Source: Escherichia coli
GTDB taxonomy: Bacteria > Pseudomonadota > Gammaproteobacteria > Enterobacterales > Enterobacteriaceae
Assembly (NCBI RefSeq): GCF_036507355.1
Contig: NZ_AP027877.1
DNA: 64,000 nucleotides
Direction: 5' to 3' (one strand)
The notes below the pieces were generated by a model. The model worked only from the letters and a program-made list of their open reading frames with translations. It made no database searches and had not been told where the DNA came from. This document shows positions 3,157-49,895 of this stretch, one piece after another. The position numbers and the translations under genes were made by a program. Position 1 is the stretch's first letter; every line of letters begins with the position of its first letter.

Positions 3157-4164
3157 CTATCCCAACAACTCTTCCTTAACATCCATCGCCAGCTCAAACG
3201 AATGCAGCCGCGCCTGGTGGTCGAAAATCTGCCCGTTGACCATAATCTCATCGGCGTCGGTTTCGCGCAGGATCGACTGCAAGCCATGACGCACTTTCGC
3301 TTTATCACCTACCAACGACATACTCAGCGCCTGCTGCACGCCATACTGCTCAGACGGTGACCAGAACTGATCCATATTTTGAATCGGCGGCGGCAGTTGC
3401 CCGGTTTCGCCACGGCGCAGCTTCACAAAGGCTTGCTGCATTGAGGTAAACAGAAATTCAGCGTCGCGGTTGCTGTCGGCAGCGATAATATTGATGCACA
3501 CCATCGCGTATGGTTTTTCCAGTCGTGCCGACGGTTTGAAGTTGCTGCGATAAAGATGCAGCGCCTGGAACAACATATCCGGCGCGAAGTGTGAGGCAAA
3601 CGCAAACGGCAGACCAAGCTGCGCCGCCAGTTGCGCGCTGTAAAGGCTGGAGCCTAACAACCACACGGGGATTTGCTCGCCGTAGCCTGGTACCGGGCGC
3701 ACATGCGGATTGGGATCGCGGGCGTCAAACCAGTCCACCAGCTCCGCGACATCGCGGGGGAAATTATCAATATCGCCGCTCATATGACGACGTAGCGCCA
3801 TCATTGTCCGTTGGTCACTACCCGGAGCACGACCCAGCCCCAAATCGATTCGCCCCGGATAGAGTGTATTGAGCGTGCCGAACTGTTCTGCAATGACCAA
3901 CGGTGAGTGGTTAGGCAACATCACGCCGCCAGACCCCAGATGCAGCGTGGTGGTATTCGCCGCCAGATAGCCAATCAATACCGACGTGGCAGCACTGGCA
4001 ATGCCAGTCATATTGTGGTGTTCTGCCAGCCAGTAGCGATGATAGCCGCGCTTTTCAGCCAGACGGGCGAGATCGAGAGAGTGGGAGAATGCTTCTCGCG
4101 CTGAAGAACCTTCGGGAATGGGGGCCAGATCGAGTAGCGAAAACGCAATGGTTTTATCAGTCAT
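3157..4164 (-). CDS. yhbW: Luciferase-like flavin-dependent monooxygenase YhbW
   Basis: 335-aa ORF; recognised as YhbW; synteny. Confidence 0.85.
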
Positions 4165-4167
4165 AAC

Positions 4168-4238
4168 AGCTCACTTTGTTACCGATTAATCTTTAATACT
4201 GCATTAAAGAGTAGTTAAAGTTGTTAACAAAGTGAGCT
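4168..4238. repeat. Nested perfect inverted repeat between ubiV and yhbW
   Basis: 14-bp perfect arms agctcactttgtta (4168..4181) and taacaaagtgagct (4225..4238), with an inner palindrome ctttaat...attaaag. Confidence 0.7.
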
Positions 4239-4244
4239 ATTTAC

Positions 4245-5123
4245 TTAGGCTTGCAGCTCCAGTCCTGCCAGCCGCCGCCAGTAGCCGTTACAGTCGCTGT
4301 TCGCCGTCAACGGCAGTGGTGCAGCGCCATTTTCATTAGCGCGGAAGGCGTCGAGCATCGCGAAAGTGTCAGTACCCTGCGGTGACAGGCGGACCAGATC
4401 GACCAGCCCCTGCATGGATGCCAGCTCGTTACCGAGGTTGTAAACGTAGCCGCTCATGGTCTGAATGCCATTGAGTACAAACACTTGTTGGTTTTCCTGC
4501 GACAGCACGTTGCGCCCGTTCGGATACTTAATGCAGCAGGTTTCACACTCATCTTTCGGGCGGTCTTCCGAACGCGCGGTAAAGCAGCGGGCGGAGTAGG
4601 CCAGCGGTAGATGACCGTAGCTCAGGACTTCCACTTCAAACTGGTTGCGAATGCCCAGCTCATCGCACTGATTAAGCAGATTCACCAGCCAGTCGCGGGA
4701 AAGCTCCACCGGCATACACCAGCGCATCATGCCCTGTTTGAGCAATATTTTCAGCGTCACCGCGTTATAGCAGTTCAGCGCGTGTCCGGCGACGAACGGC
4801 AGTTTGCGTTCAGCGCACATATTCACCACGCCGAGATCGCTGGCTTCAATCAGAAACTCACCGTTCTCAACATAGCGTTTCAGTTCGCCCAGTTCAGATG
4901 ATGCCTGCACCAGCGCCAGCGTGGAGAGCACTATCTGCTTACCACTTCCGGCGAGCGATTTTGCCATCTCCAGCCAGTCGCCAACTTTGGTTGCCCGGCG
5001 CTTGCTGCATACCGCTTCGCCAAGATAAATCACGTCGGCGCTGCTGGTGGCGGCCTGCTGATAAAAATCTTCCAGCGTCTCTTTTGGCCAGTACCACAGC
5101 ACTGGCCCTAAGGAATATTTCAT
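4245..5123 (-). CDS. ubiV: U32-family protein UbiV (YhbV), O2-independent ubiquinone biosynthesis
   Basis: ORF 4245..5141; start placed at the MKYSLGPVLWYWPKE methionine (292 aa); synteny with ubiU. Confidence 0.85.
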   Translation of the reverse strand: MKYSLGPVLWYWPKETLEDFYQQAATSSADVIYLGEAVCSKRRATKVGDWLEMAKSLAGSGKQIVLSTLALVQASSELGELKRYVENGEFLIEASDLGVVNMCAERKLPFVAGHALNCYNAVTLKILLKQGMMRWCMPVELSRDWLVNLLNQCDELGIRNQFEVEVLSYGHLPLAYSARCFTARSEDRPKDECETCCIKYPNGRNVLSQENQQVFVLNGIQTMSGYVYNLGNELASMQGLVDLVRLSPQGTDTFAMLDAFRANENGAAPLPLTANSDCNGYWRRLAGLELQA

Positions 5124-5131
5124 TGCTCTTC

Positions 5132-6127
5132 TCACTGCCATTTACGGTGATACGCGCCAAGGGTGGTTTGCGTGCCTTCGGACATCGACCCGAGCGTCTC
5201 CATCCACGCGCTTTGCGGTACGAAGTTTTGCGGATCGGCCTTACAACGGTCGATAGCCTGACGCCAGACTTTCGCCACCTGGCTGACATACGCCGGGCTA
5301 CGCTGGCGGCCTTCAATTTTCACCGAAGCGATATTCGACGCCATTAACTCCGGCAGCAGTTCCAGGGTATTGAGACTGGTGGGTTCTTCCAGCGCGTGAT
5401 AGCGCTCGCCGTCCACCAGATAACGCCCTTTACATAGCGTCGGATAACCTGCGTTTTCGCCGTCCTGATAACGGTCGATCAGCACTTCGTTCAGGCGGGA
5501 TTCCAGCCCCTGCGGCGTTTGTTGCCAGCGCACGAAACGGGCCGGAGAACACGCGCCTACGGTGTTGGGCGACTCACCCGTCAGATACGACGACAGATAG
5601 CAACGACCTTCCGACATAATGCACAGGCTGCCGAAAGCAAAGACTTCCAGTGGTACAGGTGTGACCCGTGCCAGTTGTTTCACCTGATGAATCGACAACA
5701 CGCGCGGCAGCACCACGCGAGCAACGTCAAAATGGCGATGATAAAAGTTAATCGCCTCTTCATTGGTCGCCGAAGCCTGCACTGACACATGACGCTCAAT
5801 ATGCGGGTAACGCTCGGCGGCGTACTCCAGCATGGCGAGGTCGGCGAGGATCAGCGCGTCGGCACCCAGCTGCGCCGCCATATCCACGGCGCGCTGCCAA
5901 CGGGCGTAACCGTCCGGATGCGCAAAAGTGTTAATCGCGATGTGAAGTTTGCGGCGATGTTGATGGACAAAACTCACCGCTTCCTGCAATTTTTTCTCGG
6001 TAAAGTTAAGGCCGGCGAAGTGACGGGCATTGGTATCATCTTTTAGCCCGATATAAACAGCATCTGCGCCGTTTTCGATGGCCGCCTTAAGCGCCGGGAG
6101 ATTTCCGGCAGGGCAGAGCAGCTCCAT
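5132..6127 (-). CDS. ubiU: U32-family protein UbiU (YhbU), O2-independent ubiquinone biosynthesis
   Basis: ORF 5132..6154; start placed at MELLCPAGNLPALK (331 aa). Confidence 0.85.
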   Translation of the reverse strand: MELLCPAGNLPALKAAIENGADAVYIGLKDDTNARHFAGLNFTEKKLQEAVSFVHQHRRKLHIAINTFAHPDGYARWQRAVDMAAQLGADALILADLAMLEYAAERYPHIERHVSVQASATNEEAINFYHRHFDVARVVLPRVLSIHQVKQLARVTPVPLEVFAFGSLCIMSEGRCYLSSYLTGESPNTVGACSPARFVRWQQTPQGLESRLNEVLIDRYQDGENAGYPTLCKGRYLVDGERYHALEEPTSLNTLELLPELMASNIASVKIEGRQRSPAYVSQVAKVWRQAIDRCKADPQNFVPQSAWMETLGSMSEGTQTTLGAYHRKWQ

Positions 6128-6335
6128 AATTTTTCCTGAAGGTTGCGCTATCAAAACGCAAAAATGTTAACGAACTGGGATTTTAGTTAACCTTGCTGCG
6201 ACAATTTTTGATTTAAGGCAGTTAAAGTTGTATTGGTGGTAGCAGCAATTTCATATGGAATTGTTGATTTATACCGCTATGTTATTTTTCTGATATGGCA
6301 AAATAGGATGATTGTTGAAACAGGGAGTAAAACTC

Positions 6336-49787: not shown

Positions 49788-49895
<108 letters not shown>

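Follow-up and report, generated by a model that had tools for sequence, protein, structure and literature searches.

A nested palindrome between ubiV and yhbW of Escherichia coli as a possible RNA and DNA boundary element

How can two neighboring genes be read in the same direction, only 80 bp apart, and still be expressed under different conditions? This question is raised by the junction of ubiV and yhbW in Escherichia coli, which we analyzed in a stretch of 64,000 nucleotides from contig NZ_AP027877.1 (assembly GCF_036507355.1; hereafter, the window). The genes follow one another on the minus strand in the order ubiU (5132-6154), ubiV (4245-5141), yhbW (3157-4164), with an 80-bp gap between the ubiV stop codon (UAA, 4245..4247) and the yhbW start codon (AUG, 4162..4164). 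FNR activates ubiUV expression under microaerobic to anaerobic conditions (PMC10470549). The product of yhbW is a luciferase-like flavin monooxygenase whose O2 dependence is putative, and the gene has repeatedly been placed in the MarA/SoxS/Rob/RamA regulons. For the yhbW promoter of K. pneumoniae, EMSA showed binding of purified RamA, and in vitro transcription showed a 6.9-fold activation by it (PMC4310594). In vanillin-grown E. coli, no protein was more strongly induced than YhbW (77-fold, soxS independent; PMC6561319), and yhbW was among three Rob-regulon genes that are down in rob mutants (PMC7653855). RegulonDB lists yhbW (b3160) as its own unit (via PMC6131387). The first-pass annotation of this DNA, made from the sequence, had missed this independent regulation of yhbW. 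Because yhbW is independently stress-inducible, its promoter must lie in or just upstream of the 80-bp gap. The available portions of the supplements of PMC7815308, PMC3415461, PMC4782308, PMC10268841, and PMC11092163 give no experimental yhbW transcription start site (TSS), an absence that is weak evidence.

What, then, occupies this gap? Sequence inspection and a repeat finder revealed a nested palindrome that fills nearly all of it, in agreement with the gene limits at 4164 and 4245. The distal arm, AAUAGCUCACUUUGUUA (4225..4241, minus strand), begins 3 nt past the ubiV stop and is the 5' arm of the yhbW-sense RNA; the proximal arm, UAACAAAGUGAGCUGUU (4165..4181, minus strand), is the 3' arm and finishes right at the yhbW AUG. 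These outer arms are 17 nt each and are separated by 43 nt in E. coli; 16 of the 17 pairs are Watson-Crick, and the remaining one is G·U in RNA. Their perfect 14-nt core (4168-4181 and 4225-4238) was recovered by the repeat finder at the same coordinates as in the first-pass annotation. Also recovered was the second palindrome that the annotation had placed inside as ctttaat...attaaag (CTTTAAT-GCAGT-ATTAAAG, 4187..4213, minus strand, halves 4187-4197 and 4203-4213), which is the inner hairpin of an RNA that reads through from ubiV. Only two perfect 14-nt inverted repeats in the window have a loop of at most 80 nt, compared with 0.01 expected from 100 dinucleotide shuffles. The other lies far away at 49811-49871, with arms CTTATCCGGCCTAC, and is by appearance a REP-like pair.

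The claim that minus-strand RNA would form a long stem-loop over the yhbW initiation region was borne out by folding, with energies of -30.2 kcal/mol (z -4.3) for 111 nt and -28.1 kcal/mol (z -5.5) for 91 nt. The yhbW-sense fold consists of the long stem and the inner hairpin, so that a 17-bp stem with only 5 G-C pairs closes a 43-nt loop containing a second hairpin. Plus-strand RNA folds nearly as well (-29.1, z -3.7), because any palindrome behaves so.

The element is a fixed part of the species. It is present in 5,424 of 5,426 complete E. coli genomes, is nearly full length in 5,418 of the 5,426, and occupies one locus per genome. An apparent "2 places per genome" in this search turned out to be the palindrome matching its own reverse complement (E = 0.005), and we rejected a second genomic copy or repeat family. 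The arm has no other occurrence within the window, and with one locus per genome the element lacks the dispersed copies that define REP, ERIC, and MITE sequences. No Rfam 15 family matched it at gathering score; the sub-threshold mir-1285 match (27 bits, gathering 56) is of the kind that generic hairpins typically give.

Does the ubiUV transcript end at this structure? MG1655 coordinates equal 3307612 minus the window coordinate, and this relation allowed us to place the transcripts mapped by SMRT-Cappable-seq, a full-length primary-transcript sequencing method (Yan et al. 2018, PMC6131387, Supplementary Data 1). The b3158/b3159 (ubiU-ubiV) unit of that map runs from a TSS at 3301438 to a "novel TTS" at 3303449 (PMC6131387). 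The latter is window position 4163 on the minus strand, 2 nt beyond the base of the 17-bp stem, and the unannotated end of the published map thereby gains a structure. Rather than continuous ubiUV-yhbW coverage lacking a 3' end, the junction carries a discrete in vivo 3' end at the stem base. Among 162 reads that start at 3301438, 16 end at the TTS and 53 end no more than 50 nt downstream, and 28 of the 162 go past 3303449 with a median extension of 76 nt (PMC6131387); the peak at the exact site comprises only 16 reads from a single dataset. The same study extended the RegulonDB units b3158/b3159 and b3160 to b3158/b3159/b3160 (PMC6131387, Supplementary Data 3), and therefore some transcripts cross into yhbW. 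In the available portions of the published Term-seq tables, the ubiV-yhbW junction has no 3'-end entry.

The idea that the hairpin is a ubiUV terminator, which the first-pass annotation had offered together with an RNA processing site and a translational control element, is thus only partly supported. The published 3' end comes after a stem-loop that follows the stop codon, as in a canonical intrinsic terminator; however, the loop is 43 nt here as opposed to 3-8 nt, the stem has 5 G-C pairs instead of being compact and G+C rich, and there is no U-tract: of the first 8 nt that follow the 14-bp core, 3 are U, and only 2 are when the 8 nt are counted from the end of the 17-bp stem. With such a loop and so poor a U-tract, it is not a canonical intrinsic terminator. 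A consensus promoter and terminator scan flagged neither kind of signal in the gap; its rules (loop of at most 8 nt; A at position 2 of the -10 hexamer) cannot see such architecture. We considered an RNase III site and rejected it, since a cut would be expected inside the stem and not 2 nt after it, and the helix is shorter than 20 bp. The diffuse ends and the discrete peak at the stem base fit Rho-dependent termination followed by 3' trimming back to the hairpin, which is the route that we infer. Consistent with this, a C-rich, G-poor stretch spans +40 to +100 of yhbW (4064..4124, minus strand; C/G 2.6 versus a gene average near 1), and its composition makes it a possible Rho-loading region on untranslated read-through RNA.

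What would the stem do to yhbW in the transcripts that cross it? The proximal arm holds the only Shine-Dalgarno (SD)-like motif, GUGAG (4170-4174), and the stem covers this motif and adjoins the yhbW AUG. Partition-function folding was used to calculate accessibility as the unpaired probability of yhbW positions -14 to +3. For E. coli, this probability was 0.17 in the read-through RNA compared to 0.56 in an RNA beginning at the TSS predicted below, and other genera with a short loop behaved alike (0.13-0.29 versus 0.51-0.67). Overall, 14 of 17 lineages differed (0.07-0.30 in read-through RNA versus 0.33-0.67 in loop-initiated RNA), and 3 of 17 (Mangrovibacter, Franconibacter, and one further lineage) showed no difference. 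Translational control of yhbW would fit the position of the stem over the SD and beside the AUG, but it would not be a general control of the gene if yhbW mRNA starts in the loop. If yhbW has its own promoter there, its mRNA would be free of the hairpin, and the hairpin would act as an insulator against read-through.

Can the loop hold a promoter? Viewed as DNA, the distal arm combines a marbox-like 15-mer, GCTCACTTTGTTAAC (4223-4237), with a -35-like TTGTTA (4225-4230). With a weight matrix built from 30 published MarA ChIP-seq sites, the 15-mer scored 8.8 bits in forward orientation; it ranks within the top 0.04% of all positions of the window and is the best marbox-like site within 4100-4420. 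Compared with the ChIP sites of the matrix, the score falls inside their range (3.5-20.4) and under their median (13.4). The 15-mer has three mismatches to the published marbox definition gcannwwntgnnaaa, where two at most are allowed, and this may be why the locus is missing from the published marbox screen. A single nearby MarA ChIP-seq peak is available, labelled "(yhbV)" in ETEC H10407 (PMC5684230). We asked if this was the distal arm and rejected the assignment: it maps to 4928-4942 inside ubiV, where GCACTATCTGCTTAC (one mismatch, 15.2 bits with our own matrix) forms a marbox within the coding sequence, some 700 bp ahead of yhbW, and is a separate feature.

The inner palindrome, likewise viewed as DNA, corresponds to TTTAATGCAGTATTAAA, which is conserved and would be the core of the yhbW promoter. 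From conservation and spacing, the candidate -10 hexamer is CAGTAT (4196..4201, minus strand), which has the -11A and -7T bases. By promoter geometry, yhbW transcription would start at about A4190 (4188..4192, minus strand), inside the loop, and provided that CAGTAT is the -10, the marbox-like site would be centered near -41, which agrees with the positions published for class II sites (-36 to -55). In 19 of the 20 lineages that keep both arms, the hexamer reads CAGTAT, CACTAT, CAATAT, or CAATAC. Its distance from the 15-mer is exactly 21 nt in 16 of these 20 and 20 nt in 3, with a spacer of variable sequence, and on its other side it is separated from the proximal arm by 14-88 nt, depending on the lineage. 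A constant upstream spacing together with a free downstream length is the hallmark of an activator site plus -10 that precede a 5' untranslated region (5' UTR), and on these sequence grounds we infer that the yhbW promoter sits inside the palindrome loop. Two other hexamers were tried and set aside. In TTGTTA-16-TTTAAT, no lineage shows the essential A at position 2 of the second hexamer, which is the reason that CAGTAT is preferred; TATTAA lies 26 bp from TTGTTA and has no -7 T. If correct, the architecture gives a concrete site, spacing, and predicted start to one of the regulon members of MarA/SoxS/Rob/RamA that are most strongly induced yet least understood.

Is the arrangement kept in related bacteria? 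We gathered the junction from 24 lineages besides E. coli and found both arms, hence their complementarity, in 20 enterobacterial lineages (E. coli included), with loops of 43-117 nt. They include Escherichia, Citrobacter, Salmonella, Superficieibacter, Pluralibacter, Enterobacter spp., and Cronobacter, as well as Franconibacter, Atlantibacter, Entomohabitans, Buttiauxella, and Mangrovibacter. Arm positions pair in 84% of cells at the true register compared to 32-47% at slid registers. Pair 4-35 switches between A-U and G-C, and one-sided arm changes are mostly G·U on the yhbW-sense strand; both patterns are suggestive of RNA pairing. The compensatory changes proposed as a check thus came out in part: pairing is kept at the true register, but covariation does not rise above shuffled columns, 122-150 of 500 column shuffles reaching the observed values over the 20 lineages, because both arms are conserved in sequence. 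Arms conserved in this way mean that the comparison does not distinguish pairing in RNA from the independent conservation of two DNA or TIR elements.

Conservation does not extend upstream of the distal arm, and several lineages carry inserts there, between the ubiV stop and the arm: REP in Salmonella, ERIC in E. albertii and some E. coli, and ccdAB in the Tenebrionibacter group. Since these inserts always lie upstream of the distal arm, the arm, judged by its sequence context, belongs with yhbW and not with ubiV. The proximal arm is conserved in Providencia, Erwinia, and Brenneria, all of which are without the distal arm. It must therefore have a role of its own, presumably in yhbW translation initiation as the ribosome-binding region.

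On the basis of these results, we propose that the palindrome is an RNA and DNA boundary element that would define the ubiUV 3' end, occlude the yhbW ribosome site, and hold a promoter in its loop, a proposal to which we give an even chance. It would stand between co-directional, oppositely regulated units, the FNR-dependent anaerobic ubiUV and the stress-induced yhbW. RNA from the ubiUV promoter would contain both arms and fold into the 17-bp stem closed around the second hairpin, and this stem would mark the 3' end of the ubiUV mRNA. In molecules that read through, the stem would bury the yhbW SD and start codon, and Rho, not classical intrinsic termination, would probably stop the untranslated RNA in the next 100 nt or so, after which its end would be trimmed to the stem. 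At the DNA level, the distal arm and loop would serve as the yhbW promoter, with the marbox-like site over the -35, a 21-bp spacer, CAGTAT, and a start near 4190. The mRNA made from this promoter would start in the loop, would carry no 5' arm, and would have an open ribosome site. If true, this would explain how a putative O2-requiring monooxygenase is not made as a by-product of an anaerobic ubiquinone operon 80 bp upstream. More tentatively, as a possibility short of probable, one 77-bp palindrome might serve three functions: the distal arm as activator site and -35, the proximal arm as ribosome-binding site, and the two RNA arms together as an insulator of yhbW from the FNR operon that makes the neighbors mutually exclusive, the arms closing in many other Enterobacteriaceae an expanded loop with an undescribed but conserved 5'-UTR RNA of about 75 nt and a mini-ORF that terminates on the arm.

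Could the arms act only as DNA? They might be inverted protein sites, either two marbox-like sites for MarA/SoxS/Rob/RamA or operators of another regulator, with the inner palindrome as an operator over the -10 and with the hairpin and 3' end as by-products. The arms are indeed conserved in sequence beyond their complementarity, and both are marbox-like: against the 20-mer marbox consensus the distal arm matches at 11 of 14 positions and the proximal arm at 10 of 14, and the proximal arm scores 4.2 bits on the opposite strand next to the 8.8 bits of the distal one. The distal arm is also kept, partly degraded, with yhbW beside a divergent ccdA, where no read-through is expected, and a DNA role alone could account for its retention there. 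We nevertheless consider this reading unlikely. The arms are separated by 43-117 bp without helical phasing, which is easy for an RNA stem but awkward for cooperative binding, and activators of the MarA type bind as monomers that need no inverted partner. Without selection for pairing, an activator site would not be expected to match a ribosome-binding region perfectly over 14 nt, one-sided substitutions are mostly G·U compatible on the yhbW-sense strand, and a transcript 3' end is located at the stem base. That same 3' end, discrete, 2 nt past the stem, and called a TTS by a primary-transcript method, would also be expected of an unusual intrinsic terminator of ubiUV whose overlap with the ribosome site has no regulatory effect and whose loop holds no promoter. 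Relatives with compact terminator-like hairpins in the same place point this way as well: folding shows that Erwinia and Brenneria have a compact local hairpin after ubiV instead, followed in Brenneria by UUUAUUUUU, although the terminator scan was negative in Erwinia, Brenneria, and Acerihabitans. The 43-nt loop, the 2-3 U in 8 nt, and the silence of the scan in E. coli speak against such a terminator, as does the stopping of most reads in a diffuse zone downstream and not at the site. It would also explain neither the coincidence of the 3' arm with the SD region of yhbW nor the way in which the distal arm travels with this gene, and we rate it as improbable as a role in DNA alone.

Burial of the SD and AUG in the stem would also be expected if the hairpin lay wholly in the yhbW 5' UTR, behind a promoter in the 3' end of ubiV, and served as a translational repressor opened by a small RNA, a protein, or temperature. 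In other genera, the same arms enclose a larger, partly conserved structured insert that resembles a regulatory RNA closed by a P1 stem, which lends this some weight. The region upstream of the distal arm, however, is unconserved and broken by REP, ERIC, or the ccdAB cassette in different lineages; a promoter-like block of fixed spacing is conserved between the arms instead, and Rfam gives no match. We therefore think such a repressor quite improbable. As for a functionless relic of a small MITE-like mobile element, 17-bp terminal inverted repeats around a short AT-rich core have the right form, and other repeats, ERIC and REP, insert at this hotspot as well. A single locus per genome, an arm found nowhere else in the window, and the same position across about 20 genera make a relic of this kind extremely improbable. 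These comparisons leave the boundary element as our preferred reading.

The closest known logic is the fold-back inhibition of IS10/Tn10 and IS50/Tn5, in which an inverted repeat flanks the promoter of the gene. RNAs that enter from beyond the repeat include its two arms and hide the ribosome-binding site, and the gene's own transcript begins between the arms and is translatable. The same logic is proposed here for yhbW, with a predicted internal TSS; however, this is the chromosomal junction of two cellular operons and not a transposase gene, and the stem also coincides with an upstream mRNA 3' end. If true, the junction would be a clean chromosomal case of promoter-in-loop fold-back insulation, which is best known so far from insertion sequences. 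The element likewise resembles the stem-loops that define 3' ends, such as Rho-processed ends and REP stabilizers, in its stable hairpin past the stop, an end 2 nt beyond its base, diffuse downstream ends, and partial read-through. It differs from them in being unique in sequence and no member of a repeated family, in its long loop with a promoter-like core, and in a 3' arm that doubles as the ribosome site of the next gene. Class II promoters of MarA/SoxS/Rob/RamA provide the third comparison. Their features are present only partly: a forward marbox-like site over a weak -35, a predicted center near -41, and membership of yhbW in the regulon are shared, but the site has three mismatches and no MarA ChIP peak, the TSS is predicted, and the site is also the arm of an RNA stem.

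Several observations concern the variants of this junction. The spot just past the ubiV stop appears from the compared sequences to be an insertion hotspot. In Salmonella, a REP-like element lies there (L083 1319-1440), and in the Tenebrionibacter group a ccdA/ccdB toxin-antitoxin cassette occupies the same place (L091 and L094, about 685-1300). A 125-bp ERIC/IRU element with core GTGAATCCCCAGGAGCTTACATAAGTAAGTGACTGGGGTGA sits between the ubiV stop and the distal arm (window 4239/4240; L001 639-765) in 7 of 30 evenly spaced E. coli rows in each of two samplings, and also in E. albertii; its insertion alters the outermost stem pairs. The 14-bp core arms are unchanged across the sampled E. coli alleles, and in one E. 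coli lineage stem position 3 has changed from U·G to C-G, giving a perfect 17/17 stem. E. coli M19 (hit H60) aligns to the 601-nt junction query in two pieces, and only from query position 272 onward, which suggests a rearrangement or a loss on the yhbW side. In the divergent ubiT-ubiU promoter region (6268-6304), a weak CRISPR-DR22 covariance-model hit of 21.9 bits (gathering 50, E = 0.28) is almost certainly due to chance.

In many genera, an insert of about 75 nt lies between the promoter core and the proximal arm (L085 1403-1480; also L002, L007, L084, L087, L089, L092, and L093). The insert is closed by a stem, ACAGC/GCUGU, and contains a hairpin whose tip varies as well as a block, GGAAGAAGACCUUCAAUCUGAUGAC, that is invariant. 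Rfam gave no match for it or for the long-form loci of other genera, its covariation is weak, and it may be an undescribed leader. Five lineages have a four-codon mini-ORF (ATG-ACN-NNG-CTG-TAA/TAG) whose end falls on the opening bases of the proximal arm. Providencia vermicola (L090) encodes a YhbW about 85% identical to that of E. coli in an unrelated neighborhood with no ubiUV upstream, and its proximal arm, TAACAAAGTGAGT, precedes the ATG; by this likeness, the gene may have been transferred horizontally together with its leader. Finally, E. coli TUM1226 (L099 387-426) has a natural deletion of exactly the 42-nt loop between TAACAA direct repeats, which removes the promoter core and leaves the two arms as a tight hairpin of 16 bp that covers the ribosome site of yhbW.
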